Virus record (IMG/VR): IMGVR_UViG_3300029653_000083
Span: 74,236-138,235 of that record
Reading direction: 5' to 3' (one strand)
Length of the DNA: 64,000 nucleotides
Origin: a virus
Taxonomy: Duplodnaviria > Heunggongvirae > Uroviricota > Caudoviricetes
How positions within the stretch are numbered: the stretch's first letter is position 1; each line of letters opens with the position of its first letter. The notes under the pieces are model-generated. The model had not been told where the DNA came from. It saw only the letters and a list, made by a program, of their open reading frames with translations, and did no database searches. The position numbers and the translations under genes were made by a program. Below are positions 5,881 through 31,209 of the stretch, one piece after another.

Positions 5881-5911
5881 CAAGGGGGGTAGAAAAACGC
5901 AACACGAAAAC

Positions 5912-6668: not shown

Positions 6669-6884
6669 TCAGAATTCCGGCTCCTCGACATTCAGCAACA
6701 CCAGTTTCGGACGGCGGCGCAGAATCCTGCAATCCTCTGCCCACGCGTCCAAAATTTCGCAAGCCAATACGGGTGCTTCCGGAGCCAGAGTAGGCATGGT
6801 GTTCAGAATCGACTGGACGGAGTCTAAGTCTGCGAAGGGAAGTTCTGTCGCATTATTGGCTGCATCCAAAAAATAGTGGGGCAT
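6669..6884 (-). CDS. hypothetical protein
   Basis: Internal ATG at 6882-6884 preceded by GGAAGGAG RBS; longer track ORF has no RBS. Confidence 0.4.
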   Translation of the reverse strand: MPHYFLDAANNATELPFADLDSVQSILNTMPTLAPEAPVLACEILDAWAEDCRILRRRPKLVLLNVEEPEF

Positions 6885-7035
6885 TCGTGCTCCTTCCAAA
6901 AATTGAAAAGAAAAAGCCTGTGGGTAACGATTTTCCACAGGCATTCTTGGCTTATTATTCGATTTCGCGAGGCTTCAGAACTTTGTCTGAAACACCAGCG
7001 CAATCGCGCTCAATAATAGACTTTTTTACCGACTT

Positions 7036-7200
7036 TTATTCGTCGCACAAGTCGGTGTTGCGTCTGCCATATTTGTTTCGTTTCTTGGCTTGCGGATTCC
7101 AAGCGCTACCTGCATCCCATTCGATGTGAGTGGAACGGTTTTCCCTGTGAGTGTTGTTCTTGTTGGCATTGCCGGTGTTAATCCAGTCGTGGTTGCTCAT
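7036..7200 (-). CDS. possible small Asn/His/Lys-rich protein (54 aa)
   Basis: Manual: ATG at 7198-7200 to TAA; below the 60-aa threshold of the ORF track; weak RBS. Confidence 0.2.
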   Translation of the reverse strand: MSNHDWINTGNANKNNTHRENRSTHIEWDAGSAWNPQAKKRNKYGRRNTDLCDE

Positions 7201-7212
7201 TTTTTTCTACTT

Positions 7213-7587
7213 TCAGTAGCAGTCATCGCACCAACCGGTGTCCCCGCACGGATTCTCGTTTTCGTCGGTTAGCAGACAACCGCAACCGATGCAATACATG
7301 TTGTCCGGATTGTCGGACGAAGCGAAAAAACCTTCCCCGACAATGTTACCAGCCAAGTCGGTGATGGTGTAGATTGCCCGAGTATCGGCTTCCGGTGCGG
7401 GATAGCCGGACATGCCTAGAATCCTGTTGTACACGTTCGTCAGTAGAGTGCGAACGTTTCCCGCCTGACGAGTCCCATTCACAATGGGAGCCGTCAAATG
7501 GTCGAAGAATCCTACCGTCGTATCCCAAGAATGCTGACCTTCGTGGATTTCAATTTCCAGCTTTTCCCTACCGTCGGTGAATCGCAT
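7213..7587 (-). CDS. hypothetical Cys-rich C-terminus protein
   Basis: ORF track. Confidence 0.5.
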   Translation of the reverse strand: MRFTDGREKLEIEIHEGQHSWDTTVGFFDHLTAPIVNGTRQAGNVRTLLTNVYNRILGMSGYPAPEADTRAIYTITDLAGNIVGEGFFASSDNPDNMYCIGCGCLLTDENENPCGDTGWCDDCY

Positions 7588-16757: not shown

Positions 16758-17915
16758 ATGACCAACCCATTCAAACCAACCGCCGGACGCATACCCCCAA
16801 TTCTTGTTGGACGAGAAGAAATCATCGAAGACTTCGACTACGCCCTAAAAGACGGAGTAGGAAGCCCCGGACGACTGATGTTTCTCACCGGAGCCAGAGG
16901 AGTCGGCAAAACCGTAATGCTGGACACATTGGGAACACACGCTCAAAAACAAGGATGGCAAGTCTACAACGAAAGCGCTGACAGCGGTTTTACACAAAGA
17001 CTCGTGGACTCACTTACCGGCAAAGATACCACCCGCATATCTGCATACGACATGCCCAGTGTCGGACTGACGGGAAACACCGGAAACCTCGAACTGAGTC
17101 TGGGAAGAATCGAACTCGAACGCAAAGAGGAACGTTCCTTGACATTGCGCCAAGCAGTCGGCAAGCGTCTAGACAAAATGAACGAAAACAGGCAAGGAAT
17201 CCTCATCACCTTGGACGAAGTGCAATCCGGTTCCATGGATGAAATCAGAGCAATGTCTACCGCCGTGCAACATCTCATACGAGAGGGACGGAATATAGCT
17301 TTTATTTTCGCAGGACTACCCTCAGCCGTAAACGACGTGCTGTCAGACAACGCCATCACATTCCTCCAACGGGCAGAACGATACCATTTAGGTTCCGTGC
17401 CCACGGAGAAGGTTCTGAAAGCATTCGAGGAATCGTTCAGCGGGGAAAAGAAAGCCGGAATGGAAACCTTGATACGGTTGACCAATGCCACTCATGGTTA
17501 TCCGTTCATGATTCAGCTGGTGGGTTATTGGGCTTGGAGGGTTTCCGAAACCAACGGCCATGTGAATCAAGTGACCGAGGAGGACGCGGTCAAGGGTATC
17601 GAAAAAGCCCAAGCCAAACTAGGGGATATGGTTCACGCCCCAGCATTGCATGGCTTGCCATCCCATGCGGTGAACTATCTGCTTGCCATGTCGGTGGATG
17701 ATACGGTGTCGAATACAGGTGAAATCGCCCGTCGGTTGAACCGTTCGCCACAGTTCGCCAACGTGTATAGAACCAAGCTGATTGAGAACGATTTGATTGA
17801 GCCGGTCGGTTACGGTGAAGTCGCTTTCAAAATGCCGTATTTGCGGGATTACTTGCGTGAGCATGGGGCTTATTTGCAGATGCGGGAGAATATCAGCGAA
17901 CGCTCGGAGAACTAG
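16758..17915 (+). CDS. AAA ATPase with C-terminal winged-helix (ORC/Cdc6-like, ATPase_2 type)
   Basis: Walker A GARGVGKT, Walker B ILITLDEVQ; only plus-strand gene within the minus-strand island; 5' half lower GC. Confidence 0.7.
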   Translation: MTNPFKPTAGRIPPILVGREEIIEDFDYALKDGVGSPGRLMFLTGARGVGKTVMLDTLGTHAQKQGWQVYNESADSGFTQRLVDSLTGKDTTRISAYDMPSVGLTGNTGNLELSLGRIELERKEERSLTLRQAVGKRLDKMNENRQGILITLDEVQSGSMDEIRAMSTAVQHLIREGRNIAFIFAGLPSAVNDVLSDNAITFLQRAERYHLGSVPTEKVLKAFEESFSGEKKAGMETLIRLTNATHGYPFMIQLVGYWAWRVSETNGHVNQVTEEDAVKGIEKAQAKLGDMVHAPALHGLPSHAVNYLLAMSVDDTVSNTGEIARRLNRSPQFANVYRTKLIENDLIEPVGYGEVAFKMPYLRDYLREHGAYLQMRENISERSEN

Positions 17916-17988
17916 GTTTTGTTGTTCTGGGCGGTTTAGCATGGACAAGCTGGAAGAATTCAAGCTTGCCACCATTTGACATTTACCA

Positions 17989-18023
17989 GAAAGCCCCTCA
18001 ACTAAGGGGGCTTTCCTCTTTTG
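17989..18023 (+). terminator. rho-independent terminator
   Basis: GAAAGCCCCT-caactaa-GGGGGCTTTC followed by CTCTTTTG. Confidence 0.55.
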
Positions 18024-19031
18024 CTATCCCTTGTGCGTTTTCTCATACCATTCCACGAATCCCAGCATGGCTTGCTGGAATGATGGTTTGAATTCGCCGT
18101 TTACGGGAATGTTTCTGTTGAGTGGCGTGGTCTTATAGTTTTCCGGTAAGGGTGTGGCGCACCATTCGGGTGGTATCCGGTCGGTGAATGGTTCCTCGCA
18201 ATCGTCGCTGAACATGAGTCCTACGGGCTTGCCGTTGAGGAGGATTGTTGCGTGGGGGCTGATTTGTCCTTTCGCCAACCGGTATTCGCCTTTTGTCGTG
18301 TGTATTGGATAGTGGAAGGTTTCAGGTAGTCCTCCCCGCCGGTATTCGTCGCGTAATAGTCGAATCGGATTATAGTAGCGTTCCAATGCGGGGTATGCCC
18401 ATTCGCATCCGCTCCAACAGTCGCGTACCCTGTCCATTCCGTCCCAGTTTTCTTTCGGATTGGGTTGGATGCTGAGTTTGCGGTATCGGTCGGTTTGGCA
18501 CCAGCGGGTGGGATTGTTCAGGGCATAGTTTGGCGTGGTTTGTTCGGCTAACCGTATGAGAGTGCTGAGGGTGCATGAAGCATAATGTTGCTTGTCGTAT
18601 CGTGCGACAAGCCGATACGGGTCGGCATCATCCTTGTTAAACACAGGCTTCAACACGCGTAAATGTTCCTCCGTTACGGGAATATCAAGGTCGGCTGGTA
18701 AACCCAACACTTCCATCCAACCTCCAAGCCTGTTCGTATCCCACTTGTAATCCTTGCAGTATTGCGCTTGCAACAGCCAAACCATCCAACGGCGCACATT
18801 CCGCATCAGTACGGGATGGGACGCGAATTCGAGAGGACGCCCCAGCATGTCATGATTCACATTATCCGGCGTGGTAATACTGGTTCGATTACCGTACTCG
18901 TCCACTGCCGTCACGACGATATTGTGTCCGGCGTCCACAGCCTTGAACATGTCGCTGATGTTGTCTTCCACGAACGTGGGCGGAATGAGACGCGACTGGA
19001 CTTGACCATTAATCGGCACGGAGAGCATCAT
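18024..19031 (-). CDS. hypothetical protein (335 aa)
   Basis: ORF track. Confidence 0.55.
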   Translation of the reverse strand: MMLSVPINGQVQSRLIPPTFVEDNISDMFKAVDAGHNIVVTAVDEYGNRTSITTPDNVNHDMLGRPLEFASHPVLMRNVRRWMVWLLQAQYCKDYKWDTNRLGGWMEVLGLPADLDIPVTEEHLRVLKPVFNKDDADPYRLVARYDKQHYASCTLSTLIRLAEQTTPNYALNNPTRWCQTDRYRKLSIQPNPKENWDGMDRVRDCWSGCEWAYPALERYYNPIRLLRDEYRRGGLPETFHYPIHTTKGEYRLAKGQISPHATILLNGKPVGLMFSDDCEEPFTDRIPPEWCATPLPENYKTTPLNRNIPVNGEFKPSFQQAMLGFVEWYEKTHKG

Positions 19032-19639
19032 TCACCATCCTCACTATTAGAGGCGAGTCGGGTTCGGAGTTCCCTCAACCGGCCTAACCGTTCCTCCATA
19101 GCCTGAATACGAACGTCAACCGCAGTCAACGTGTCACCATCCGGCTCAGACAACTCATACTTGCCGGACGACAGTCGTTCCAGAAAACTGGTTGGAACAT
19201 CCCATACCAATAATCGGAGTTTGTCGGGACTGAGATTCAACCCCGTGTATAAGCCGGTTTTAGGCCACATGCCATCCACGAGAGCCACATTCGGCATCAT
19301 GCGCGGTGGACGGTCGGGCTGATATTTTTCGACTAGGATTCGACCAGCGAACCAGATAATGTCGCTATCCTGCTTGGAGTACGCGTACAAGTAGTCGTAG
19401 GGGTCGATGGTGACTGTGACACGCTTTTCAGCGTCCACGCCCTTATGCCACCAGAAGTATTTGTCTAAAGCTTCGAACACCAGCCTTTCCACACGCATAT
19501 CGAACGTCCAAGTCTTCAACTTGTCATCAAACGTTCCACCCAACGCGCGGGAGCGACGGGCGAACAACGGATTATATGGAGCCTTAACCTTCAAACGGCC
19601 ATCACTGCGAGTGACCGTAATATCATCAAAACCTGCCAT
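19028..19639 (-). CDS. hypothetical protein (203 aa)
   Basis: ORF track; ATGA overlap with downstream gene. Confidence 0.55.
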   Translation of the reverse strand: MAGFDDITVTRSDGRLKVKAPYNPLFARRSRALGGTFDDKLKTWTFDMRVERLVFEALDKYFWWHKGVDAEKRVTVTIDPYDYLYAYSKQDSDIIWFAGRILVEKYQPDRPPRMMPNVALVDGMWPKTGLYTGLNLSPDKLRLLVWDVPTSFLERLSSGKYELSEPDGDTLTAVDVRIQAMEERLGRLRELRTRLASNSEDGE

Positions 19640-19908
19640 GACAGTTTCCTTTCACTCAAACGGCATACTCTGACCAATGCGCTGATAACCTCTAAAGCCC
19701 CACATGGGCGAAGTCCCGAGGAAGGAAATGCAAGTAAACCCAGTGTAACACCAAGCTGGGAAGAAAAACTAGCCGACAAGCATGCCGAGTGAAATACGAT
19801 ACAATCCAAGCCTCACGAAATCTCATCCAAACGATTGAGGAAGCGGAAGATTCTGCGCCACCGCTTCCAGCAGATTACACCCCTCCACCAATCTGGAAAG
19901 TCCGGAAA

Positions 19909-21138
19909 TCACGGGTGAAAAGCCAGCTTCCGCATTTCACAATGCCTCCGATACCACGCTTTCTCCCGAGCGCACAGTCCACGACGGTGAGTTAGACCCG
20001 ACAGTGTGCTCTCATGGCTCGTCCAAGAATCCTGAACTGTCCGCAATCCCACATGCACGCCATCATATGAGCGGATAAGGTTACGCGCATGCCGTCGGCT
20101 TGCACGCAACGCCTTATGGTGCATGCGGATAAGAATACTGCCGTCATCCTGTACGCTGTATACGCGTTTCAGGAATGTGAGTTGACCGGTGCGACAGTCC
20201 ACTATGCGGGTCTTGCGCTTGTTCAACCGCAATCCCAATTGATTGACATGCCGCTCGTAACCGGCCAGCACACGTTCGGCCTGTTCACGATTCTTGCAGA
20301 AACAGTAGGCATCATCCATATACCGTCCGTAGAATCCTTGCGACATGCACCAGTGGTCAACCTTGTTCAAATACCAGATAGCCATGGTTTGGCTTGTCTG
20401 ATTGCCTAAACCCAAGTGAGGTTCGTCCAATACGAAGATTCTCAATACGGTTAGAATCCGTTCCACATCCTGCTTCTCCCGTCCGGTGCGGGCGATGCTC
20501 CGGTACAGGGTGGAAATCATATCGAACGCTCGTTGGGAGCTGATACTTCCGAAATAGTTGGAACAGTCGAAGATGACAGCATACGGATGCTCCCATTTGC
20601 CCAAAGCCCGCTTATAGTGTAGTTCGAACCGTTTTCGGGCGAACGATGTTCCACGTTTCGGTAGGCTTGCCGCATTATCGTATATCAGTTGGCTTTCCAC
20701 GATGGGGACGAGACTGTTGTCGCATAAGGCGCGTTGCACCACCCGGTCTCGGAAGGATACCGCGCTGATGTGGCGGAGTTTGCCTCGTTCGGAAATGTCG
20801 AATCGGATTGGCGCTCTCTTCTTGTATGTGCCGTCCTCTAATTCTTGGGCGAGTTTCCAACAGTTGACGGCACGCCTATTGTCGAAGTTCAACACTGTGT
20901 TTTTCCATGTGACGCCGCGTTTGCATTTTCTTGCGGCTTGGTAGAGCGCGTCGAATCCGAATGTTTGTTGGAAGTCGATGTAACGGTGGAGCTTCCTGTA
21001 CTTATCATCCGAGCGTTGTTGCAGTCTGCGTTGGCGTCTTCTACGTCTTTGACTCGCATTCACGATTTTAATGCTTCCTTCACTAGGGAAAGAGAAAAGA
21101 ATGGTTGAGGGCAGGTCGTCGGCAACAACCCAAGACAT
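19909..21138 (-). CDS. diversity-generating retroelement (DGR) reverse transcriptase
   Basis: RT motifs RHISAVSFRDRVVQRAL, FDCSNYFGSI, YMDDAY. Motif 4 reads LGNQTSQ (SQ signature of DGR RTs rather than the QGxxxSP of group II/retron RTs). TR lies 195 nt upstream. Alternative GTG start ~21060 possible. Confidence 0.85.
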   Translation of the reverse strand: MSWVVADDLPSTILFSFPSEGSIKIVNASQRRRRRQRRLQQRSDDKYRKLHRYIDFQQTFGFDALYQAARKCKRGVTWKNTVLNFDNRRAVNCWKLAQELEDGTYKKRAPIRFDISERGKLRHISAVSFRDRVVQRALCDNSLVPIVESQLIYDNAASLPKRGTSFARKRFELHYKRALGKWEHPYAVIFDCSNYFGSISSQRAFDMISTLYRSIARTGREKQDVERILTVLRIFVLDEPHLGLGNQTSQTMAIWYLNKVDHWCMSQGFYGRYMDDAYCFCKNREQAERVLAGYERHVNQLGLRLNKRKTRIVDCRTGQLTFLKRVYSVQDDGSILIRMHHKALRASRRHARNLIRSYDGVHVGLRTVQDSWTSHESTLSGLTHRRGLCAREKAWYRRHCEMRKLAFHP

Positions 21139-21332
21139 GCAATGATGTTGGACGCCCAGCTTAAGGGGCGAGTATCCGTCGTTCCCGACAGTCTTAATAT
21201 CTCCCTCAACCTATTTCACACGCAACCCATTTTTCGAGGGGCCGCGCATTCGACCATATCCCCTTCCCCTTCGGGAGGCTTTCACCCATTGGGCTACTGG
21301 CCTATCTGATGTTAGTTTTTGGTAAGAGGAAT

Positions 21333-21486
21333 CGGGGACAACGGAGTAGCGATTGTTGGCATTGTTGTTGTAGCTGGGGTCGCCGTTCGAGTTCACTTGG
21401 AGGAAATTGTTGTTGTTGTTCGGGTTGGGCGAACGCTCCCACCAATTGTTGTTGTTAGCACCAAGAGGAGTGGAACCGGAAACGGT
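21333..21486 (-). repeat. DGR template repeat (TR)
   Basis: 154 bp, intergenic; 128/154 identical to 22131..22284; 25/26 mismatches at TR adenines (coding strand). Confidence 0.85.
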
Positions 21487-21528
21487 GTCACCATAGTTTG
21501 GATATGGCCGATTTTGTTCAATTATATT

Positions 21529-22044
21529 TTAGGCTTGCGCCCGAGTATCCATTATAGTGTTCGTTTTCGACTCGGCGTTTTTAGCTTTCTTCAACTGGTC
21601 TCGCTCATACTTGACGGCTCCGGTGAACACGCCCATCGCCTTGTAGAGGGTTCCCGCATAGTTCACGAATTTCTTCTCCTTGACGACGGGATTGTATCTG
21701 GGGTCGCCTTCCGGATATTTCCTGTAGGCTTCCAAGTCTTTTTCCCGTGGAGGAAACTCCATCCAATCGTCCACAAGACCGGAGAGTGAGTTCAGCATGC
21801 CTTGGGCCTTGCACAACAGTTGCAGTTTCATCTCATGCTCTTCTACAGTGCTTGCATAAATGATGTCGGCACTGTAGGCGGAGGAGTACATTTCGTAGGC
21901 GATATGCATGACATGCACGGTTTCAATGCAGTTACGGCTTTTAGGCCATTTGCGGAACAGATTTCTGGTAGCCAAGAGCACGATTCTGGCCTGATTCGCA
22001 TATTCGCTTTTGGCTTTTGTACGTTTGCTTGCGGGAACCGTCAT
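21529..22044 (-). CDS. putative DGR accessory variability determinant (Avd-like, basic helical protein)
   Basis: Position between VR-containing target and TR/RT; basic, helical composition; AAGGAG RBS. Confidence 0.5.
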   Translation of the reverse strand: MTVPASKRTKAKSEYANQARIVLLATRNLFRKWPKSRNCIETVHVMHIAYEMYSSAYSADIIYASTVEEHEMKLQLLCKAQGMLNSLSGLVDDWMEFPPREKDLEAYRKYPEGDPRYNPVVKEKKFVNYAGTLYKAMGVFTGAVKYERDQLKKAKNAESKTNTIMDTRAQA

Positions 22045-22076
22045 AGGACTCCTTTTGTGTGAGATTTGAGTTTGGA

Positions 22077-22104
22077 GGGGTGGTGGGGATGAACCCCACC
22101 ACCC
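22077..22104 (-). other. GC-rich stem-loop downstream of VR (DGR-associated hairpin)
   Basis: GGGGTGGTGGGG-atgaa-CCCCACCACCC; 11-bp stem, 12 nt after target stop codon. Confidence 0.5.
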
Positions 22105-22116
22105 AAGGATTGGGGA

Positions 22117-23049
22117 TTAGAAGGAGAAAGCGGGGACAACGGAGCAGCGATAGCCGGCACTGAAGCCGTAGCCGGGGTCGCCGTACGACTTCACTAGGAG
22201 GAAATAGTAGTTGCCGTCCGGGTCGGGCGAACGCTCCCACCAACTGAGGCTGTCAGCACCAAGAGGAGTGGAACCGGAAACGGTCTTGTAGATGCCGGAG
22301 AGAATGCTATTACCCGACCAGTTATTTGTCACCTTACCGTGGAAATACTCGTATTGGCTTCCCTCCTGATTCAACGCTTGGAAACCACCAGAGGTCTTCC
22401 AACCATCGTATAAGGTTGGTACGAGTTCACGGTAGGAGACGAGCCATACTTTGTCTGCCGTGGCTGACGCGCTTGAACCGACTGTGCTTCCGTAGGCCAT
22501 GTTGTTGGTTTGTTTCAGCACGGTTGTGACGTTGTTTTGGAAGTCGGTTGGGAATTGGTTCCAGATTTCACCATTGTTCATCTGATTGCGGAGAAGACTG
22601 TCACGCCAGCCGCCATTATTGGTGTGACTATTGTTCATGGCATACGCTTTCGGTAACGCGTTCCAAGCCATGAACGTCAATCCTGCTTTTCGTCCACTTC
22701 CGTCGGCTTTGTCGTCGTGGAGGATGCCGATGAGTCGGAATGGGAGGTTCGAGCCGTCTGATAGGGTGAGCGTGCCTTTGACCCCGTCGGTCAGGTTCTT
22801 TTCCATTGCGGCATAGTATGTGCTTCCTTTGCCTTTCTCGCTTAAATCGTCGGCAATCTGTTTCAATCCCGCCGCGTTATAGCCCGCGTAGCAAACCTTG
22901 TCCACGCCAGTATTGCATTTGGCTGGTTCGGCGGCTATTGCACTACCGGTGAGGAAGCCGCCGCAGACCGCGCTCATGATGGCGAGGGTGGCGAGGAGCC
23001 GCCGAACCATGTGACGGCTCCCGTGTGATTGTGTGGCGTGTTCGCCCAT
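22117..23049 (-). CDS. DGR target: secreted variable protein with C-terminal CLec-like variable region
   Basis: Start MGEHATQ with AAAGGAA RBS 12 nt after adhesin stop; signal peptide MVRRLLATLAIMSAVCGGFLTGSAIAAEP; last 51 codons are the VR; ends GYGFSAGYRCSVVPAFSF. Confidence 0.75.
   Translation of the reverse strand: MGEHATQSHGSRHMVRRLLATLAIMSAVCGGFLTGSAIAAEPAKCNTGVDKVCYAGYNAAGLKQIADDLSEKGKGSTYYAAMEKNLTDGVKGTLTLSDGSNLPFRLIGILHDDKADGSGRKAGLTFMAWNALPKAYAMNNSHTNNGGWRDSLLRNQMNNGEIWNQFPTDFQNNVTTVLKQTNNMAYGSTVGSSASATADKVWLVSYRELVPTLYDGWKTSGGFQALNQEGSQYEYFHGKVTNNWSGNSILSGIYKTVSGSTPLGADSLSWWERSPDPDGNYYFLLVKSYGDPGYGFSAGYRCSVVPAFSF
22131..22284 (-). repeat. DGR variable repeat (VR)
   Basis: See TR; lies inside the 3' end of CDS 22117..23049. 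Confidence 0.85.
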
Positions 23050-23060
23050 TCTTGTTCCTT

Positions 23061-26000
23061 TCACTGTTCTTCCTTCTTTCGTAGGAGGATGATTGCCGCG
23101 ACGAGTCCGCTGATGCTGACGAGCATGAGGAGCGGCAACAGCAATCCCATGCCCGTGTGCGGCATGGTCGCCAACCATGTTTCAGGCAGGACACCCGCAT
23201 CCACATGCTCCTTGGTTGGAGCATCTTGGGTGAGGGTGATGGTCAGCTTGTTGGCTTCATCCGTGTAAGCATCCGAATCAGTGGAGCTTCCATCCGTCGC
23301 AGGAGTCTTGTCTCCCACATCCGGCGTGGTGAAGTCCCGGTGGTTCACTTTGGTGAATTGGATACGGTATTTGTTGCCGTTCGCGTCCAGACGTTCGAAA
23401 ATGTACTTGCCATCCTTGTCGGTCTTGGTGGTTGCCAACTGTTTGCCGTTCTCGTCAGTCAGAATGACCGTCTGACCGGCGAAATGCGTGTTCTCACCTT
23501 CATCTTGAATGCCGTTCTTGTTGGTATCCTCCCAATACAGGCCGCTGATGGAACCGAGTTTCTTCGCGGTGGTGGTTGGTGTGATGATGGTGCCGACTTG
23601 GTCGCAGGAGTCCTCATCGGACGTGCTGAACCAGTGTTGGCGTCCTTCCTCCGTATAGTCGGTGTCGGTGCGGCATGTCGGATTGCCGGTCACGTCATTC
23701 GTGTTCGTATCCAGTTTGGATGCGTTCGGAGGGTCCGGCTTGGTTTTGCCGCTTGCATGTGGCGTGCCTGAGTATGGCGTGTGTTCGGAGGTGAACCATG
23801 CTTGGTTGAGAATGGTCTTCGTATTCTTCTTGACCCACTCGTCTTTCTCAGTTGGAGACCACTTGGTAGTATCCGCAGTTTCACGGTCAACGGTGCCAGT
23901 GAAATGGTAGATGACATAGCCGCCCGACTCAATCGCATACGGCAGATTGTACGTGCGGGTCGTCAACCCCTTCTCCGTGGACTCGCTCAACGGTTCGACC
24001 GGTACGGCGGTCGGGTCGGACGATACGACCATTCCCTTCAAACCGGTGGAACGTGCGCCACCCGTCTTGCCGTCACCATACGGGTCGAAGCCCGCAATCA
24101 TGACCTGCTTGCCGACAATGAGCACGTCACGGTCGCCGCCCGCAACGTCGGATGCGGTAATGCCCGTATCGATTGGCGTGGAAACAATATCCGCGTTGCC
24201 GCTCGTACTGCCGTTGGTCCAATACCTGCCTGTACCGGTCTTACCGTTCGCTAATTGGCCGTCACCATTCCAGCCAGCCGCCCACAAGTGTTGGTTCTTG
24301 TCGATGGCGTAGAAAGTGTTGTATCCGCCACCGATACGGGTGATGTACCTCAGATTAGACACATTGGACTGGCCGATACCGCTATCACCTCCGCCGACGA
24401 GCACTATCACTGTACCCGCGTCAGTCAACCCGTAGGCGTTGCCGAATGAGGCGACAACTTGCGTGAAACCAATAGAGAAAAACTCGTCGCCGTCCACCAC
24501 ACAACCGCCGTAGGACGTCAACGCGACCCACCTGTACGTGCTGGCGCTGACCTGCGTGAACGTTTTACCCGACTGGATTTGCGTCCACGTTGAATACGAG
24601 GTGGAACTGACTTTTCCGACCACCCACAAGGTGCCGTCACTTGCTATCGCCACAGTGAACTGGTTGCCGCACGCCACGTCAACAAACGTCTTATCTTCTG
24701 CGACTAGAGTCCACTGGTCACGATTATCCGTATCACCCGTACCCAATTGGCCTTTACCGTTCCAACCAGTCGTGTACAAGTGGCCGTCCGTGCTGATGGC
24801 GGCGGAATGCTTGCCACCGGCGGCGACTTTCAGCCAACTACCGTTGACGATGGTCGGCTTGTTCACGTTCGTTGGGGTAGCGGTATTCGTCGTGTCAGGC
24901 TTGAAACCTAATTGACCATACTGGTTGTTACCCCACGCATACAACAAGCCCTCGTTCGTCAACACAAACTTATGGTCGCCACTCGTCGCAACCTGCTTCG
25001 CACCACCAGACTCGATAGAAACCGTACCGGCGGTAGCGGAAACATCATGCACGTTGGCGCTCATACGGTCAGAAACGACACTGGAAGTATCAAAACGACT
25101 AGTGCCAGAATTCTGTACTTTGACATCCCAGTTGATGACGCATTTCGTATCGGTGCAACTGGTGCCGGTGACGGTTTTGTCCACGGTGGCTTTCGGGTCT
25201 GGTTTCGCATACCCGTAGTCCACGTTCTTCTGGTCTGCGCCGATGCCTAGGTGGATGTCGTCGGACGTGTCTTTCGCGTTGGACTTGATTTTGTTCGACC
25301 AGCTTCGCGTGTTCGTCACGTTTTCGAGCTTGCCATAGTAGGTTTTGACCTGCGTCTGCACGCCATCACCCGTACTGGTGCCAGTGTTGCGTTTCACCGA
25401 AGTACGGTAGGTGCCGGAGTGGAGCAGGTTGAACTCGTAGTAGCCGTCCTTGTCGGTCTTCACCGTTTTGACGGCCTGCCAGCCGCCGCTTGAATCCTGC
25501 TTGCCGAGGGTGACTTCCACTCCTTCGATACGTTCTTCACTGTCACCGATGAGCGTGTTCTCATCCTTATCCCACCAGACGGTGCCGCTGATGCTACCGG
25601 CCACTACCTTCGCCACGTCAGGCCACGGCTGGTTGCCCGCCGGTTTGTCGGAAGCGTCGGAATAATAGTTACGGCCAAGCCACAGCGTGTACTTGTCGTC
25701 TTTCACATTGTCGGATGGGGTGAGCGTGATGGCGCCGTTCACCGCCGAATAGGACAGTTTATCGTCGGACGCGACGACTGTGCTGGTCAGTCGGATGGCG
25801 ATGATGTTCTTCTTCTCGATGGAGGACAATTCATCCCATGTCTTCCACTCGTAGTCAGCCGGATTATCCGACTTCTTTCCGGTGGTGGTTGAATAGTAGA
25901 CGGTCGTACTGGTCGAATTGTCCATATTGACCGTGACGGGCTGGGTCAGTTCGTAGGAGCCATGATAGTTGCTGTATCCACGCTCATATTCGACCAGCTT

Positions 26001-28439
26001 GTCCTGCACGTACTTCTCATCACCATTCGCAGGAAGCAGTAGCATGCTATCCATGGTGCCGGTATGTCCGCCGCCCTTGCCGTACACGTTGAACTCCCAA
26101 GTAAGCGGGTCACTGATTTCAGCCTTCGTGGTCTTCACACGCATGATGCCATTGTTGGTTTCCGCATTGGAGACAGGGAATGGGACGCTGGGCGTATTGC
26201 TTTTGATGGTTTGGGCTTGCAATGCGCCGTTCTCGTCAACGTCCACGCTCATATTCGCACTGGCGGTCACAGTCCCGGTGGCGAGATTGGATACGATGCC
26301 ACTGAAATGCAGGTCAGGCAAAGTGGCCGACCCCATACGGTCTACTTCCGGCGTGACTTTGCCGGAACGTGGCGTGAACACGAGATTATTCCCGTCCACT
26401 TTCATCTGCCAGAACGAATCATCACAGGTCGGATTGTACAAGCCTTTCGGTTTCGGCACCGTGATGGTCGGCGTCATGCTCGTATTGGACAGGAGAATGG
26501 TGCGCAATTGTTCCGTGACCGTATAATCCACTCGCATGCCGGGAGTCAAATCGACTGCGCTTCCGGACGGGTGATTGGAACTGTTGTTCGCATACACTTG
26601 ATTGCCTTCACCATCGTAGGCTTTTAGACTGATGTCGATACTGGTGGTCGGGTCTACCGGCTTGGCAATCCACACCCAATTGGTGACGCTCGCCTTATCG
26701 TCTTCGGTAAGCCATGCGGTCAGCGTATCCAAAGCTTCCACATTGCCTTTGGACACGTCGGCTATGGCGAGCGTGTTGAACGTGACCTGAACGTTCGGCG
26801 CACCCTTTCCCAAAGTCAAAGTGTCGGGGTTGAACGTCACCCGAATCTTCTTGACGTTCGGAGCGTCTGTGTCGGATGGTTCCCCGTCATGCCAATTGTC
26901 TTTGCTATCATCCCATTGAACTTTGTAGTCGGAAACCGGAGCGCCGTTCTGGGTGACTTCCAAGCTTCCATCCCACCGCATGCGCGTATTATCCCACTCG
27001 TCCTGCATGGTCGGCGTAGTGTTTTTAAGCTTGTCCGCCGTAACGTTCGCCGCATACATTTCCAAAATGGTTTTGACTTGCGTTCCACGGGACACGGTGT
27101 CGCCGGAACCGTCGGAATAGTAATGGTAGATGTCGGCTTTGCCTTCGGCGGCGTCGAACGTCAGATTCTCCTTGTCGAACATGGTCTTGGACGCAGTGTT
27201 AGGACGTTGCAGTCCTTTGCCGAACAGTGGAATCTTGCCAGCTGGAGTCGGCTTGAGCCGTTGGATGATGGCTCGTGACCAGTCATTATTCGCGTACGGG
27301 TAGCCGACGCGGGCACCCGTATCCTTGTTGTAGGTGCTCTTGTCCCGTCCAATGTTCCAGCCGGGTTCTCCACCTTTGCCCATGTTCAACAGTGCGTCGC
27401 CGTTATCGTCTTTGACGCTGAACACGGTTTCGTCGGGAACAAGGTGGACATCGTAATATTTGACGTCTCCTTCTTTCATGTTTTTGAGCGCGTCGGTTCC
27501 GGCGGGAATCCTGTAGCTGATTGTCGCCGCCGCACCGTTCTTGCCACTGGATACGGTCAGATACTGTTCTTTATCACTGTTACGGGTAATCCGCTGACCG
27601 CCTACAGTCCACACGGTGTTCTGCGGGAAGTCGGAAATATCCACTTTGGTAGTCCAATCGATGCTGGTGGACGCGCCCTTCGTGGACGAATAACCCGGAT
27701 AGGTCAACGCGTCGGCACGAATAGTGAAATCGCCGGTCGCGTCGGTGTTCTGACTCCAATAAGTACGATGCTCATACGAGTATTGGCCTTTCACCGGATT
27801 GCCGCCATTGTCAATGACCAAGTCAGCCGCCGGAGCGGATACTACAGTCAGCTCATCCGTACGATACGTGGTTGACGTTCCACCTTCGCGGGCGACGACG
27901 ATTTTCGGAATCTGACCCGGCTTGACCAAGCCTCCCGTGTCTTTTGCTTTCAGATAGAAGGTTTGGGTCATGGTTTCCACGCCACCGGCTGGAACCGTGT
28001 AGGAGCAGGAGCCGTCACTGTTTTTCTTCGCGGTGACGAGTTGTCCCGGCTGGCAGAAGCCACCACCGTCAGCAGTCTGCAAATACGGCGCGTCGTCCAA
28101 GTCGAACTTCACGTTGATGGTACGCTTGCCCGCCGCGTTGAAGTTCAACGTCAATGAATATTCGACCGTATCACCGGATGCGACCACGCCATCGGTAGGG
28201 GAATCATCGCCCGTGGCGAACCCGTTCTTCGAATTCACGAACGTTTGCGAACTCGTGCCATGCCCCGTACCGTCGGCTTTCTTAACGATTTTCGCAGTAG
28301 CATACGCAGGTTTCAACTCGTCCGCATGCGCTTTTGGAGAGGCTACCGGATTGGTCATGCATGTCAGGCCGGATGCCAGTGTGGCGATTGCGGCCAATAA
28401 TGCTACCGGATGTGCCACATGCTTTTTGAGAATACCCAT
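23061..28439 (-). CDS. giant cell-wall-anchored adhesin (RCC1 beta-propeller repeats, CnaB/SdrD-B-like domains, MPHTG sorting signal)
   Basis: Signal peptide; RCC1 repeats (YAWGNNQYGQLG, TTGWNGKGQLGTG); GxxWxDxNxNGxxD CnaB-like motifs twice; C-terminal TMPHTG + hydrophobic + RKKEEQ. Confidence 0.8.
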   Translation of the reverse strand: MGILKKHVAHPVALLAAIATLASGLTCMTNPVASPKAHADELKPAYATAKIVKKADGTGHGTSSQTFVNSKNGFATGDDSPTDGVVASGDTVEYSLTLNFNAAGKRTINVKFDLDDAPYLQTADGGGFCQPGQLVTAKKNSDGSCSYTVPAGGVETMTQTFYLKAKDTGGLVKPGQIPKIVVAREGGTSTTYRTDELTVVSAPAADLVIDNGGNPVKGQYSYEHRTYWSQNTDATGDFTIRADALTYPGYSSTKGASTSIDWTTKVDISDFPQNTVWTVGGQRITRNSDKEQYLTVSSGKNGAAATISYRIPAGTDALKNMKEGDVKYYDVHLVPDETVFSVKDDNGDALLNMGKGGEPGWNIGRDKSTYNKDTGARVGYPYANNDWSRAIIQRLKPTPAGKIPLFGKGLQRPNTASKTMFDKENLTFDAAEGKADIYHYYSDGSGDTVSRGTQVKTILEMYAANVTADKLKNTTPTMQDEWDNTRMRWDGSLEVTQNGAPVSDYKVQWDDSKDNWHDGEPSDTDAPNVKKIRVTFNPDTLTLGKGAPNVQVTFNTLAIADVSKGNVEALDTLTAWLTEDDKASVTNWVWIAKPVDPTTSIDISLKAYDGEGNQVYANNSSNHPSGSAVDLTPGMRVDYTVTEQLRTILLSNTSMTPTITVPKPKGLYNPTCDDSFWQMKVDGNNLVFTPRSGKVTPEVDRMGSATLPDLHFSGIVSNLATGTVTASANMSVDVDENGALQAQTIKSNTPSVPFPVSNAETNNGIMRVKTTKAEISDPLTWEFNVYGKGGGHTGTMDSMLLLPANGDEKYVQDKLVEYERGYSNYHGSYELTQPVTVNMDNSTSTTVYYSTTTGKKSDNPADYEWKTWDELSSIEKKNIIAIRLTSTVVASDDKLSYSAVNGAITLTPSDNVKDDKYTLWLGRNYYSDASDKPAGNQPWPDVAKVVAGSISGTVWWDKDENTLIGDSEERIEGVEVTLGKQDSSGGWQAVKTVKTDKDGYYEFNLLHSGTYRTSVKRNTGTSTGDGVQTQVKTYYGKLENVTNTRSWSNKIKSNAKDTSDDIHLGIGADQKNVDYGYAKPDPKATVDKTVTGTSCTDTKCVINWDVKVQNSGTSRFDTSSVVSDRMSANVHDVSATAGTVSIESGGAKQVATSGDHKFVLTNEGLLYAWGNNQYGQLGFKPDTTNTATPTNVNKPTIVNGSWLKVAAGGKHSAAISTDGHLYTTGWNGKGQLGTGDTDNRDQWTLVAEDKTFVDVACGNQFTVAIASDGTLWVVGKVSSTSYSTWTQIQSGKTFTQVSASTYRWVALTSYGGCVVDGDEFFSIGFTQVVASFGNAYGLTDAGTVIVLVGGGDSGIGQSNVSNLRYITRIGGGYNTFYAIDKNQHLWAAGWNGDGQLANGKTGTGRYWTNGSTSGNADIVSTPIDTGITASDVAGGDRDVLIVGKQVMIAGFDPYGDGKTGGARSTGLKGMVVSSDPTAVPVEPLSESTEKGLTTRTYNLPYAIESGGYVIYHFTGTVDRETADTTKWSPTEKDEWVKKNTKTILNQAWFTSEHTPYSGTPHASGKTKPDPPNASKLDTNTNDVTGNPTCRTDTDYTEEGRQHWFSTSDEDSCDQVGTIITPTTTAKKLGSISGLYWEDTNKNGIQDEGENTHFAGQTVILTDENGKQLATTKTDKDGKYIFERLDANGNKYRIQFTKVNHRDFTTPDVGDKTPATDGSSTDSDAYTDEANKLTITLTQDAPTKEHVDAGVLPETWLATMPHTGMGLLLPLLMLVSISGLVAAIILLRKKEEQ

Positions 28440-29344
28440 TAGTGTTCCTTCTTTGCGTGGTTTTTTCTACGGATGATGAGAATGGTGATGATGATTACCG
28501 CAAGCCAGAAGCCGCCGACGTACAGCATGAGCCATTGGTTCGTGTGGTCTTTCGGCGCGTTTTCGGGTTTGGGCGCGGGGTGTGGCATGCTGGCGCGCGT
28601 GCCGGTCACCAAGAGTCGCTTGTTGTTGATGCCGTATGGCGTGCAGGTCAATAGTGTGGAGAGGTCTTTTCCGGCGACGATTTTCAGTTTAGAAAAGTCG
28701 GATGGGTCTACCACACTAATATCCGTGACCTTGTAAGCGAGCATATGTCCGGCGGTTATCAAATAGAAGACGTCTCCCTTTTTGGCTTCACTGCCGAAGC
28801 CTCGCAGCTTGTCGAACATGAGCTGGTCGGCCAAACCCGTGTGAGCGGATATGACAGTATGCGTGTTCTTGCCACCGACGGGGAGACTGGAACCGTATAA
28901 GTGTCCAGCTCCAGCGGCCAACACATTTTGCGACGTGCCATGCCGGATGGGCAGGTTGATGCCCAAGCGTGGATATTTGATGGTAGCCATGACCCCATCC
29001 TTGGGGGTGGATAGTTGCTTCCGATACGTGTTGTCCGTTTCGGACTTGTTGACGCCCGTCCAAGGGTCTTCCGCCTCACCAAGAATGGGCTGGCCTTCCT
29101 CGTATAGGCGTTGATTGTAGGCTTGCGCGTCCGCATACTCTTGGGCGATTCGTTTCACGTCAGTGTTTTCCACGGCTTGCGCGTGGGAGTCGGTCAACCG
29201 GTTGGATTGGCTGCTGTTCGAAATCATGAGAATGAATGGGATGGTTCCGGACAGGGCGGATAGGATTAGGCAGAGAAGTCCCGCTATGGCTCGATTTCCC
29301 AAGCCTTTCGGTTTCGCCGTATGTTTTCCCAAAACCCCTCCCAT
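28439..29344 (-). CDS. class C (pilus-associated) sortase
   Basis: DPW lid motif, His motif ISAHTG, catalytic TLLTCTPYG, C-terminal TM anchor. Confidence 0.85.
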   Translation of the reverse strand: MGGVLGKHTAKPKGLGNRAIAGLLCLILSALSGTIPFILMISNSSQSNRLTDSHAQAVENTDVKRIAQEYADAQAYNQRLYEEGQPILGEAEDPWTGVNKSETDNTYRKQLSTPKDGVMATIKYPRLGINLPIRHGTSQNVLAAGAGHLYGSSLPVGGKNTHTVISAHTGLADQLMFDKLRGFGSEAKKGDVFYLITAGHMLAYKVTDISVVDPSDFSKLKIVAGKDLSTLLTCTPYGINNKRLLVTGTRASMPHPAPKPENAPKDHTNQWLMLYVGGFWLAVIIITILIIRRKNHAKKEH

Positions 29345-29451: not shown

Positions 29452-29479
29452 CATACGGCAGTATTCCAATCTCCAATCT
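29452..29479 (-). promoter_or_regulatory. conserved element motif 2, copy c
   Basis: GATTGGAGATTGGAATACTGCCGTATGA (gene orientation), ~115 nt upstream of sortase start, overlapping pilin 3' end. Confidence 0.45.
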
Positions 29480-31209
29480 CACGCCTTGCGACGAAGCAGC
29501 AGGGCGGAAGCGCCAGCCAACAGGACGGTCATCACGCCGAAGATGGACAGCCAGACCGCACCGGTCTTCGGCATGTCAGCGATGTTGCGGGCGTTGATGA
29601 CGGTCACTCCATCGTCACTGGTCTTGGAGGCCAGATGGTTGGCATCATCCTTGAACTTGGTGAGGGACGAAGTGCTGGTGTTATGGTCTTTGGACTGGGC
29701 CACGCCAACGGTCAGAGTGAACTCCGGCAGAATGCTGCCGCCGAACGGACTCTTGGTTTCAGTCACCGTGTAGGCACCGTACAAGCCCTTCAAGGTGATG
29801 ACGCCATTGTTCTTATCGGTGGTGGTGATGTCGGCGCTTGCGGTAGCGGCCTCAGTCGAGTCGGCAACACGATACTCGTTATCACCCACCTTGACGAACT
29901 TGACGATATTGCTCTTGGCATCCTTGATGTTGAACACGGCACCCGCGAGCGGAGCATTGTTCGTATCGGTCTTGGTCAGAGTGAACTTGCCGACGTACAC
30001 GTAGTTGGTGTCGCCCGGAGTCTTCTCATGGTCGGTGACGGTGTTCGGATTATGGGAGTATTCGACCTCGCTCGTGTTGGTGTCAACACCGTCCACGTGG
30101 GCGTTCTTGTTCACGGTCATGTCATAAGTGACAAGCACTTCCGCATCGACCGGGAACGTGGTCTTGGCGGCGATGATGTCGGAAGAACCATCAGCGGTCG
30201 GGGCGAACAGGATATGGAACTTGCCCGCCTCGGTCGTCACCTTGTAATCCTTGCCAGCAGTCAAAGCCTTACCACCGACAGTGACATTCACACTATCCGG
30301 GTTGAAAGTCAGACCATCCGAATACGTATCGTTGAGCGCATAATAATAATGGTCGTAGCCAGTCCAAACAGGCACCGCGCCGCCCATCGTGAAAGAGACC
30401 TTCTTGCCGATGGAGGTCTTGGCTACCGCATAATATTTCTTCCCTGCTTGGCGAGCCCCCTCATCCTCATGGTCCTCACCGATTTTCTCATCCACATCAC
30501 CATTCTCAACAGAGGTGATAGCCTTCCTGACTGCGGCGTCATGCACCTTATAGTCCACGGTGCCCAGCGTGTAGGTCTTGTCGCCGTTCTTCAACGTGGT
30601 CTTGCCGTCGATGCCGGTGCCGTTGAACATGACGATGGACGCCTGACCGGCCGTGGTGGTGTCCACGACCGCATACACGCCCGGACGGACTGATGCGGTC
30701 ATATGCTTGGCGTCGGCGCCCTTGGCGAACGCGGTGCCCTTGTCGCCGGTGACGGCGGCCTCGTTCTTCAACTGGTCGATGAAGTCACGAAGCTTGCCAG
30801 CCCACGGGCTGTTCTCGGAATCAAGGAGATTCTGCACGACCCACACCATCGGATTGGACGCATTATAGTCGTATCCGGCAGTCTGGTCTTTCTTGGACTG
30901 GGTGTCAATATGGGCTTTAGTCAGTGCGTCAGCAATGGCAGAAGCCTTGCCCGCGTCAATCAGGTCAAAGCCGGTAATATTAGTACCATCAGTCTGCGCA
31001 TACGAATAGTAGGCGAGCGGCACAGCCTTCAACGTGCGATTGCTAATATCACCATTAGCAGCGACGGTCAACGTCTGACGAGCAGCCTCACCAAGCTTGG
31101 ATGCGTCAACACGAGTATCAGCCGCCATGGCGGAGCCAACTCCAGCCAAACCCATGGCACCGGCCACAAGCGTGGCGACCGTTGCCTTCAACAGGTTTTT
31201 GGTTTTCAC
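29479..31209 (-). CDS. sortase-dependent pilin / fimbrial subunit (MPKTG sorting signal, E-box)
   Basis: Signal peptide; E-box-like YTVTETKSPFGG; C-terminal ADMPKTG + hydrophobic + RRKA; adjacent class C sortase. Confidence 0.7.
   Translation of the reverse strand: MKTKNLLKATVATLVAGAMGLAGVGSAMAADTRVDASKLGEAARQTLTVAANGDISNRTLKAVPLAYYSYAQTDGTNITGFDLIDAGKASAIADALTKAHIDTQSKKDQTAGYDYNASNPMVWVVQNLLDSENSPWAGKLRDFIDQLKNEAAVTGDKGTAFAKGADAKHMTASVRPGVYAVVDTTTAGQASIVMFNGTGIDGKTTLKNGDKTYTLGTVDYKVHDAAVRKAITSVENGDVDEKIGEDHEDEGARQAGKKYYAVAKTSIGKKVSFTMGGAVPVWTGYDHYYYALNDTYSDGLTFNPDSVNVTVGGKALTAGKDYKVTTEAGKFHILFAPTADGSSDIIAAKTTFPVDAEVLVTYDMTVNKNAHVDGVDTNTSEVEYSHNPNTVTDHEKTPGDTNYVYVGKFTLTKTDTNNAPLAGAVFNIKDAKSNIVKFVKVGDNEYRVADSTEAATASADITTTDKNNGVITLKGLYGAYTVTETKSPFGGSILPEFTLTVGVAQSKDHNTSTSSLTKFKDDANHLASKTSDDGVTVINARNIADMPKTGAVWLSIFGVMTVLLAGASALLLRRKA

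Follow-up and report, generated by a model that had tools for sequence, protein, structure and literature searches.

An apparently active diversity-generating retroelement in the pilus operon of a putative Bifidobacterium megaplasmid

We analyzed a 64-kb stretch of DNA (hereafter, the window) in which a diversity-generating retroelement (DGR) adjoins a pilus operon. Its genes and features are as follows.

19909..21138, minus strand: DGR reverse transcriptase (RT), 409 aa, with motif 4 LGNQTSQ at residue 244 and motif 5 YMDD at residue 273
21139..21332, minus strand: spacer (Sp) between the template repeat and the RT gene, presumed 3' part of the DGR RNA
21333..21486, minus strand: template repeat (TR), 154 nt, non-coding, with 43 adenines, most of which fall in AAC/AAT codons when read in the VR frame
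21503..21511, minus strand: UCGGCCAUA, a segment lying 17 nt upstream of TR and proposed to correspond to the "cPRT stop" duplex (avd:Sp) of BPP-1
21529..22044, minus strand: accessory gene in the Avd position, 171 aa, pI 9.4, four long helices predicted
22078-22104, minus strand: GC hairpin with an 11-bp stem and a 5-nt loop (TTCAT), 12 nt past the target stop codon, presumed DGR target-site hairpin/cruciform
22117-22130, minus strand: AFSF tail and stop codon after VR, unvarying
22131..22284, minus strand: variable repeat (VR), the final ~51 codons of the target gene, up to ..SVVP
22117..23049, minus strand: target gene, fourth of the pilus operon, for a 310-aa DUF6273 protein, predicted to be secreted and to have a C-type-lectin-like fold
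23061-28439, minus strand: adhesin, 1792 aa, with RCC1 and SdrD_B domains (pilus context, outside the DGR proper)
28439-29344, minus strand: sortase (pilus context, outside the DGR proper)
29479-31209, minus strand: backbone pilin (pilus context, outside the DGR proper)

The target ATG lies 11 nt from the stop codon of the adhesin gene, which ends at 23061; an initial sequence-only reading was right to place the cassette downstream of a pilus/adhesin operon and had given this gap as 12 nt. We set the target start at the Met at 23049, which is conserved in homologues, and the listed open reading frame begins further upstream. The same order of the three pilus genes and the target is found at loci L015, L021, L027, and L028. 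As that reading had proposed, VR forms the C-terminal end of the target, and structure prediction yields a well-predicted C-type-lectin-like fold with VR at its C-terminus. In phages, DUF6273 has already been recognized as a domain targeted by DGRs (PMC10743442). The target is presumably secreted and may be physically linked to the pilus; no sortase sorting motif was found in the protein. A lipoprotein anchor was also considered and was rejected, given that the Cys of AVCGG is not conserved among homologues.

A repeat search matched positions 21319-21486 to 22117-22284 over 168 nt, with 83% identity and an offset of 798. Within this match, TR and VR (21333-21486 versus 22131-22284) are identical at 130 of 154 positions, and the 24 mismatches, read from TR to VR on the plus strand, consist of 14 T>C, 8 T>A, 1 T>G, and 1 G>C. 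On the coding strand of the window, formal alignment placed mismatches at 23 of the 43 TR adenines and at 1 of the 111 other positions (Fisher p=1.4e-14). The repeat, the example strings first quoted for it, and the G/C difference named as the lone exception are all found in the sequence; the original counts of 128/154 identical positions and 25 of 26 mismatches at adenines become 130/154 and 23 of 24, which leaves the point unaffected. Read in the VR frame, TR is AAC-rich as described, with 13 AAC and 4 AAT codons and a translation that includes ..GANNNNWWERSPNPNNNNNFLQVNSNGDPSYNNNANNRY.. Weak TR/VR homology runs 3' of TR to about 21319, and two fixed differences lie in this part (A>C at 21332/22130 and C>T at 21329/22127). 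The IMH-like 3' end of VR (..CCCCGCTTTCTCC) and the corresponding TR sequence (..CCCCGATTCCTC) have two fixed differing sites in all lineages. No additional VR copy was found within the 64-kb window.

The accessory gene encodes a protein that is probably a divergent Avd. Its position, charge, predicted four-helix bundle, and weak remote homology speak for the Avd-like label first given to it, and the Pfam results do not: neither the window protein nor 18 other family members matched Pfam bAvd (PF22296) when scanned at E<=1, with BPP-1 Avd and Acaryochloris Avd serving as controls (7e-36 and 4e-21, respectively). The window protein matched only phrog_30516, a family of unknown function (E=1e-4), and two members of its own family matched phrog_3206 weakly (5e-4 and 0.017). 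The Avd of Roseburia phage Shimadzu was the only one with a detectable profile match, which was weak and in-register; hhalign was negative against BPP-1 Avd, Acaryochloris Avd, and a three-sequence Avd alignment of poor quality. PDB sequence searches with the single protein and with a profile returned only noise (e.g., antibody chains), tblastn against phages gave no match, and Foldseek of a low-confidence model against BFVD gave nothing significant. The missing Pfam bAvd match, the negative hhalign results against two canonical Avds, and the uninformative BFVD search would suit an unrelated small basic protein, such as a regulator, with the RT working alone or with some other partner. We consider this unlikely, as the gene occupies the same position as BPP-1 avd, is kept together with the RT gene in lineages whose RTs are 80% and 67% identical, and still has its start directly after the hairpin in decayed loci. 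The pI of the protein also resembles that of known Avds, and its family has weak in-register matches to the Shimadzu Avd and phrog_3206. Pipelines that depend on the bAvd model would leave the accessory gene of this DGR clade unannotated.

An 11-bp GC hairpin had been reported 3' of VR, and the structure at 22078-22104 folds as DNA at -14.7 kcal/mol (z=-5.85), with 0 of 200 shuffles folding as well. A counterpart has been described (PMC3240598). The loop is unchanged in L013, L015, and the decayed L027 and L028, and the stems of L013 and L015 carry a compensatory T:A to G:C change; L021 has TTCATT in place of the TTCATC of the others, a change at the loop-closing stem position. Because no T-run follows the stem, the hairpin is not a typical intrinsic terminator, and a scan for promoters and terminators gave chance-level results.

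Within the spacer, AAGGGGAAGGGGA (21271..21259) complements the 3' end of TR, and next to it UAUGGUCGA (21258..21250) complements UCGGCCAUA, which lies upstream of TR. In the BPP-1 RNA, TR:Sp and avd:Sp duplexes have been described (bioRxiv 10.1101/2023.10.23.563531), and by analogy the segments found here may act in the same way, including as a priming site. They are conserved in the lineages with RTs 80% and 67% identical. In L015, a change from CCATATCC to CCATGTCC upstream of TR is matched by a change from GGATATGG to GGACATGG in the spacer, and in L079 one pair of the proposed duplex is broken. Altogether, the proposed duplexes comprise 22 pairs with 96% of cells paired and a single compensatory change, from A-U to G-C; the shuffle control was weak (69/500), as were the covariation statistics, the segments being almost invariant. 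The fold of the whole spacer reached only z=-1.87, and no credible Rfam family was found for the spacer RNA at the gathering threshold in the whole window or by E-value in 21000-22300. The fixed TR/VR differences are located immediately 3' of the presumed priming duplex, which fits a region that always stays uncopied.

Diversity among samples was drawn from their assembled consensus sequences. Ten near-identical ~220-kb metagenome contigs encoding an identical RT protein were polymorphic almost only in VR over a 3.8-kb stretch: at locus positions 3501-7300, 45 polymorphic columns fell in VR and 4 elsewhere, and 9 distinct VRs occurred among the 10 sequences. In 16 pairs of a VR with its own TR, differences occurred at 307 of 670 adenine sites versus 8 of 1714 other sites (p~7e-183). 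Lineages with RT identities of 80% and 67% have adenine-specific TR/VR pairs of their own, and lineage-specific non-adenine TR changes relative to the window TR were carried by the lineage's own VR at 34 of 35 positions. Information flows one way, from TR to VR. Across loci, TR was invariant or nearly so and the VRs of those loci all differed; at the level of assembled sequences VR is thus hypervariable and TR stable, and the invariant VR that the initial reading had named as a refutation was not seen. Target-protein variants form clusters of up to 1,229 member sequences each, and among the 64 cluster representatives examined the C-termini were all different, with the variation at TR Asn codons. 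VR is diversified at the population level. No TR/VR pair was found in L016 and L023-L025 (RT identity 45-51%), which are loci at contig ends.

The same comparisons bear on whether diversification continues. Several copies are dead or damaged, L006 being without the accessory gene and a separate TR, L021, L027, and L028 missing the RT, and L044 having a 1-nt deletion in TR, so activity is not universal in the family. Decayed copies such as the first four, the identity of the window VR with the L008 VR, and the use of assembled consensus sequences instead of reads would be compatible with a relic, in which mutagenesis is past, nothing is diversified now, and the samples differ through old alleles that recombination or plasmid transfer has distributed. 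This appears very unlikely for the window, where every part is intact. Moreover, unrelated VRs sit on backbones with almost no other polymorphism and follow their own TR at non-adenine sites, 64 of 64 representatives are distinct, and hundreds of assemblies encode one identical RT protein.

The RT open reading frame (19909-21138) contains LGNQTSQ and YMDD as first reported, and sequence comparisons group the protein with DGR RTs. Its best solved-structure match in a PDB sequence search was the BPP-1 RT (8ub7_A, E=3e-13), with the motifs aligned and with an Arg and a Leu aligned to R74 and I181, respectively, of that enzyme (bRT); no group II intron RT was found at E<=0.001 in the same search. 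The RT also matched Pfam RVT_1 (E=3e-13) and PHROG 1423 (E=1e-56). By tblastn, the best annotated relatives were DGR RTs adjoining Avd genes, including those of Roseburia phage Shimadzu (34% identity, 168 bits) and an Acaryochloris plasmid (104 bits), versus only 57-61 bits for group II ltrA genes. DGR RTs have the signature [I/V/L]GxxxSQ (PMC7826257), which LGNQTSQ fits, and not QGxxxSP. Among NCBIfam models, the best match was the group II intron RT/maturase TIGR04416 (87.5 bits versus a cut-off of 300), followed more weakly by the Drt models and a retron model (25.9 bits versus 235), and no DGR RT model was among the matches. An RT from another retroelement or defence system (group II intron, retron, or DRT/Abi-type) beside an unrelated duplication of the lectin-gene 3' end can practically be discounted, given that these NCBIfam scores fall far under the curated cut-offs, that the closest structure and the motif are those of DGR RTs, that DGR RTs score 2-3 times above ltrA genes by tblastn, that Rfam returned no group II intron or retron RNA (gathering threshold in the whole window, E-value in 21000-22300), and that a plain duplication would not confine mismatches to adenines.

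Backbone proteins of the replicon are syntenic with those of the pMP7017 megaplasmid family and lie in the same neighborhood (DnaB, 53% identity; an 886-aa ATPase, 59%; a 1335-aa protein, 44-48%). This synteny backs the earlier suggestion of a conjugative plasmid and supports a distant relative of the bifidobacterial megaplasmid pMP7017, probably a ~220-kb, conjugative-type replicon of human-gut Bifidobacterium. Close relatives of the target occur on ~185-kb contigs of B. pseudocatenulatum isolates, and chromosomal copies of the pilus operon bear decayed DGR remnants. A prophage origin was rejected, there being no phage structural genes nearby and the chromosomal relatives adjoining housekeeping genes. 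The identical RT protein was recorded in 810 blocks of a public assembly collection. Megablast of 19000-24000 found no match in PLSDB plasmids or INPHARED phages. No GTDB representative genome encoded the RT protein, so the element is absent from these species-representative genomes; a search for the spacer motif in them gave one match, in a Bacillus genome, which we took as chance.

Taken together, these results make it highly probable that the window holds a complete, currently active DGR that diversifies a predicted secreted, C-type-lectin-like protein of a pilus operon on a putative Bifidobacterium megaplasmid. The RT and the divergent Avd-like protein would bind an RNA that runs from the end of the accessory gene through TR and the spacer. 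The spacer would fold back onto the 3' end of TR and onto the segment upstream of TR, setting the start and stop of the cDNA as in BPP-1, and the RT would copy TR faithfully except at adenines. The conserved 3' end of VR and the GC hairpin beside it would guide the cDNA as it replaces VR, and ~40 adenine positions in AAY codons would be randomized in the predicted ligand-binding C-terminus of the DUF6273 protein.

Bifidobacteria play a key part in the early colonisation of the human gut. For a Gram-positive commensal, the element is a concrete, testable example of a surface-interaction protein whose evolution is accelerated, and the repeated decay of chromosomal copies provides a natural series for DGR gain and loss. 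It is conceivable, if rather doubtful, that the DUF6273 lectin is a functional partner of the co-transcribed sortase pilus, which would amount to a self-reprogramming adhesin on a transferable megaplasmid, operating via an unclassified Avd lineage. Such an adhesin might set host-glycan or mucosal-ligand binding, or recipient-cell choice in conjugation, and, as a retroelement-driven system of a Gram-positive bacterium, would parallel the Bacteroides type V pilus DGRs and the R64 shufflon.

Compared with the BPP-1 DGR (mtd-avd-TR-brt), the order and orientation of the target with its C-terminal VR, the accessory gene, TR, the spacer, and the RT gene are the same. Both elements have adenine-specific TR/VR differences and a C-type-lectin-fold target (predicted here). 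In both, a GC hairpin follows VR closely on its 3' side, TR/VR differences at the 3' end are fixed, and parts of the spacer complement the 3' end of TR and a stretch upstream of TR; the two RTs can be aligned, and their motifs are conserved. In contrast to BPP-1, the present element is non-phage and its target is no tail fibre; TR measures 154 nt versus 134 nt and the spacer 194 nt versus ~144 nt. The BPP-1 hairpin is shorter with a GAAA loop, whereas here an 11-bp stem with a TTCAT loop starts 12 nt past the stop codon. Furthermore, the accessory protein (171 aa) is missed by Pfam bAvd, and the RT has a ~50-aa Arg-rich N-terminal extension.

Gut phages nd4 and nd12 carry "tentaclins" with a DUF6273 C-type-lectin-like variable domain (PMC10743442). 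DUF6273 DGRs of this kind, also found in Faecalibacterium and Roseburia phages, share the variable domain and include the nearest annotated RT relatives, but their targets are receptor-binding proteins of Bacillota phages, their RTs are only 27-34% identical, and no phage structural genes surround the present element. Plasmids of the pMP7017 family (Bifidobacterium breve and B. longum) share syntenic backbone proteins; they differ in having no DNA-level similarity over the 5-kb DGR region tested and in being 169-198 kb long without the RT and the DUF6273 target, compared with 217-232 kb for the contigs of the present element. The Bifidobacterium DGRs known or suspected in the searched literature all involve prophage tail genes (PMC8705816). 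The element described here is, unlike these, non-phage, apparently highly active, common in public gut data, and linked to a pilus operon that is conserved and lies on a large, probably conjugative-type plasmid.

Bacteroides DGRs on ICEs diversify type V pilus adhesins (Macadangdang et al., bioRxiv 10.1101/2024.11.15.621889), and the same work mentions, without description, an Actinomycetota DGR clade enriched in infants. Like the element of the window, the Bacteroides DGRs are cellular, borne on mobile elements of human gut commensals, linked to a pilus locus, and diverse in VR between hosts. They belong to another phylum and are carried by ICEs instead of a putative megaplasmid, and they act on a type V pilus, whereas the pilus here is sortase-dependent and Gram-positive and the target is a separate, predicted secreted lectin encoded after the adhesin and no demonstrated pilus subunit. 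The present element is a known DGR mechanism with canonical organization in a setting not described before.

A single long direct repeat was detected by repeat search in the region, pairing positions 21319-21486 with 22117-22284 over 168 nt at 83% identity with an offset of 798, and no further copy was found in the 64-kb window. The repeat belongs to a diversity-generating retroelement (DGR) that directly follows a pilus operon, with the template repeat (TR), the variable repeat (VR), the reverse transcriptase (RT) and the neighboring genes arranged as follows.

31209..29479, minus strand: backbone pilin
29344..28439, minus strand: sortase
28439..23061, minus strand: 1792-aa adhesin with RCC1 and SdrD_B domains
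23049..22117, minus strand: target protein, 310 aa, beginning eleven nucleotides past the adhesin
22284..22131, minus strand: VR, inside the target gene
22104..22078, minus strand: GC hairpin, 3′ of VR
22044..21529, minus strand: accessory ORF, 171 aa
21486..21333, minus strand: TR
Between TR and RT, minus strand: spacer, 194 nt
21138..19909, minus strand: RT, 409 aa

Ungapped comparison of TR (21333-21486) with VR (22131-22284) gave 130 identities over 154 positions. The 24 mismatches read 14 T>C, 8 T>A, 1 T>G, and 1 G>C on the plus strand, and because all genes here lie on the minus strand, 23 of them fall at TR adenines. Accordingly, 23 of the 43 adenines in the first 154 nt of TR differ from VR, versus only 1 of 111 other positions (Fisher p=1.4e-14). 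A sequence-only reading had put the identity at 128/154, with 25 of 26 mismatches at adenines; formal alignment upheld the repeat and its adenine specificity while slightly correcting these counts. Read in the VR frame, TR contains 13 AAC and 4 AAT codons.

An identical RT protein is recorded in 810 blocks of a public assembly collection, and the longest contigs carrying it consistently measure 217-232 kb. In a comparison of ten of these loci with the window, TR proved identical in eight, carries one change in locus L011 and is recombinant in locus L006. Across locus positions 3501-7300 of ten co-linear sequences, 45 polymorphic columns fall in VR and 4 elsewhere, and variation was seen at 40 of 43 TR-adenine columns versus 4 of 111 others (p=1e-28). 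Additional loci, including sublineages with altered TRs, were recovered by a metagenome scan using a spacer motif. When 16 VRs were each compared with their own TR, differences occurred at 307 of 670 adenine sites versus 8 of 1714 other sites. Furthermore, the TRs of individual lineages depart from the window TR by a non-adenine base at 35 positions, and the cognate VR carries the same base at 34 of them, providing direct evidence of copying from TR to VR. The C-termini of target cluster representatives were all different (64 of 64 examined), with variation located at TR Asn codons and the WWERSP, FL.V, GDP, and SVVPAFSF segments unchanged. More distant relatives (L012-L014, 80% RT identity; L015, 67%) possess their own adenine-specific TR/VR pairs. 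From these assembled sequences, drawn from different loci and lineages, we conclude that the element diversifies in nature. The population check proposed in the sequence-only reading thus came out in its favor, polymorphism being concentrated at VR positions matching TR adenines across assembled loci.

Two individual loci depart from this organization. In L006 (ERZ27237375 k119_261026, a contig of ~229 kb), a 798-bp deletion fuses VR to TR (locus 4888-5928, corresponding to window 21486-22284), yielding a hybrid repeat whose first ~60 nt are VR-like and the remainder TR-like. The accessory gene is gone, and the target becomes a 346-aa protein running into the spacer. The fusion either arose by homologous recombination of one repeat with the other, an event that would inactivate the DGR, or is an artefact of assembly. 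In L044 (human gut contig OQCR01000004.1), one nucleotide is missing from the first AAC run of TR when compared with the VR of that locus, so that retrohoming from this TR would frameshift the target; a sequencing error and an inactivating mutation are both possible causes.

The RT matches Pfam RVT_1. Its NCBIfam matches are all below threshold, the best being a group II RT/maturase model (87.5 bits versus a cut-off of 300), and a group II origin is very unlikely: ltrA genes reached only 57-61 bits by tblastn, and Rfam detected no group II or retron RNA. Among solved structures, the top match is the RT (bRT) of Bordetella phage BPP-1 (8ub7_A, E=3e-13), the sole other being a Cas6-RT-Cas1 fusion (2e-4). 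An arginine of the window RT aligns onto bRT R74, a residue promoting adenine mutagenesis. In the 8ub7_A alignment, LGNQTSQ is placed onto IGSLTSQ of bRT, and [I/V/L]GxxxSQ is the signature of DGR RTs (PMC7826257). By tblastn, the best annotated relatives are DGR RTs, namely those of Roseburia phage Shimadzu (34% identity, 168 bits), with an annotated Avd upstream, and of an Acaryochloris plasmid (104 bits), with an adjacent avd. The assignment to the DGR type, first made from the SQ motif, is therefore shared by the best structural and tblastn relatives. The RT also bears an N-terminal extension of ~50 residues (residues 1-50) containing SQRRRRRQRRLQQR, which BPP-1 RT does not have; its true start codon is uncertain because the start called for a relative (P0003) lies another 31 codons upstream.

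Within the "complete DGR" label, the Avd assignment is the least secure element. Neither the accessory protein nor 18 relatives gave any Pfam or NCBIfam match, while the BPP-1 and Acaryochloris Avds, used as controls, match Pfam bAvd strongly, and hhalign of the accessory protein against these two Avds was negative. The family is very small: a search of 1.84 billion proteins yielded 30 representatives at E<=1e-3. Nonetheless, the gene occupies the avd position and is retained alongside the RT in diverged lineages, the protein has a pI of 9.4 (9.6-10.2 for known Avds), and a single-sequence model shows four long helices (pLDDT 63). The family profile aligns with the Shimadzu Avd over 118 columns (75% probability, E=2.4e-5), both sharing a P-K/R-x-x-R segment, and two family members match phrog_3206, which contains the Shimadzu protein and the BPP-1 and Acaryochloris Avds, weakly and in register. 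The original "Avd-like" label is thus favored by position, charge, helices, and weak profile links, and opposed by Pfam bAvd and hhalign; the product is probably a divergent Avd-like protein, as opposed to a demonstrated bAvd member.

The target matches Pfam DUF6273, a domain previously described from gut phages as a DGR target of C-lectin-like type (PMC10743442). Its AlphaFold model (29-sequence alignment; pLDDT 83.5, pTM 0.82) predicts a C-type-lectin-like fold, akin to dozens of C-type lectin domains. Residues 1-38, disordered in the model, include a basic-then-hydrophobic stretch ending in AIAAEP, consistent with a putative signal peptide. No LPXTG-type motif was found in the target, and the single Cys in its signal region is unconserved.

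The order pilin, sortase, RCC1/SdrD_B adhesin, and DUF6273 recurs in L015, on the Bifidobacterium moukalabense chromosome (L027), and in Bifidobacteriaceae MCC02031 (L028), where the operon adjoins plsC, gpsA, and ddl; in all three, the target start overlaps the adhesin stop by 14 nt. Decayed DGRs lie beside the same operon in L027, L028, and B. pseudocatenulatum isolates (L021/L022), none of which has a TR or an intact RT. All of them, the chromosomal L027 and L028 included, retain the VR 3′ end, hairpin, and accessory-gene start, and in MCC02031 an RT fragment of 71 residues (139-209, 65% identity) survives as well. These chromosomal remnants therefore indicate that the association between DGR and pilus operon is old, widespread in the genus, and often lost; a pilus-lectin-DGR association thus exists, or existed, on chromosomes too. 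The adhesin (window 23061-28439, minus strand) itself has at least two alleles, of 1792 and 2016 aa, among otherwise near-identical plasmids, including L005, L006, and L010, as well as a 669-aa version in L007, and its 3′ part (locus columns 3001-3500) is polymorphic independently of the DGR.

The GC hairpin predicted 3′ of VR was borne out as a strong fold. Its TTCAT loop is unchanged in L013, L015, and the decayed L027/L028, while in L013 and L015 a T:A pair of the stem has become G:C. The sole departure in L021 is TTCATT in place of TTCATC, at the stem position that closes the loop. This pattern of conserved pairing and loop sequence agrees with the BPP-1 hairpin, for which both the structure of the stem and the sequence of the loop are known to be important (PMC3240598). 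The repeats also differ consistently at their 3′ ends: in all lineages TR has CCCCGATTCCTC where VR has CCCCGCTTTCTC, fixed differences that behave like IMH*/IMH. Two neighboring conserved segments of the spacer have complements elsewhere in the presumed RNA: AAGGGGAAGGGGA in the TR 3′ end, UCCCC-GA-UUCCUCUU, and UAUGGUCGA in UCGGCCAUA, 17 nt upstream of TR. Were the cDNA primed from the 3′ end of the former duplex, it would start near ..GTTG of TR, which would account for the persistence of the two TR/VR differences lying downstream. Of the cells covering the 22 proposed pairs, 96% are paired; L015 shows a single compensatory change and L079 a single broken pair, and a shuffle control was not significant. 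We infer a duplex-primed cDNA start with modest support.

The window, with a GC content of ~52%, also encodes DnaB, ParA-like, ArdC-like, and GmrSD-like proteins. DnaB (53%), an 886-aa ATPase (59%), and a 1335-aa protein (44-48%) have their best matches in neighboring positions on B. breve pMP7017 and related B. longum megaplasmids, which differ in having neither RT nor target; for the ATPase, remoter matches bear annotations as DNA-transfer proteins of type IV secretion. Close homologues of the target are assigned to B. pseudocatenulatum, where contigs of ~185 kb preserve the adhesin, target, hairpin, and first 52 accessory codons, with no TR or RT. Several metagenome contigs have the human gut as stated origin. 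Downstream of the RT (window 16758-19639) lie unknown ORFs of 203 aa (matching phrog_18108) and 335 aa, the latter split or truncated in several related contigs, and a divergently oriented 385-aa AAA_16/STAND-like ATPase; together with the more distant GmrSD-type nuclease gene (58624-59649), these are possible plasmid defence genes. IS605/OrfB genes (TnpB-like, Cas12f1-like_TNB) occur within a few kb of the DGR at varying positions in several related contigs (L004, L012/L021 flanks).

Taken together, the element is mechanistically a textbook DGR, with the same order of parts as BPP-1 (mtd/VR, avd, TR, brt). The literature searched yielded no non-phage DGR in Bifidobacterium, no DGR joined to a megaplasmid-borne operon for a sortase-dependent pilus, and no accessory-protein lineage that Pfam bAvd fails to recognise. 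In Bacteroides, DGRs linked to type V pili have been described, and the study in question mentions in passing an infant-enriched DGR clade of Actinomycetota (bioRxiv 10.1101/2024.11.15.621889).
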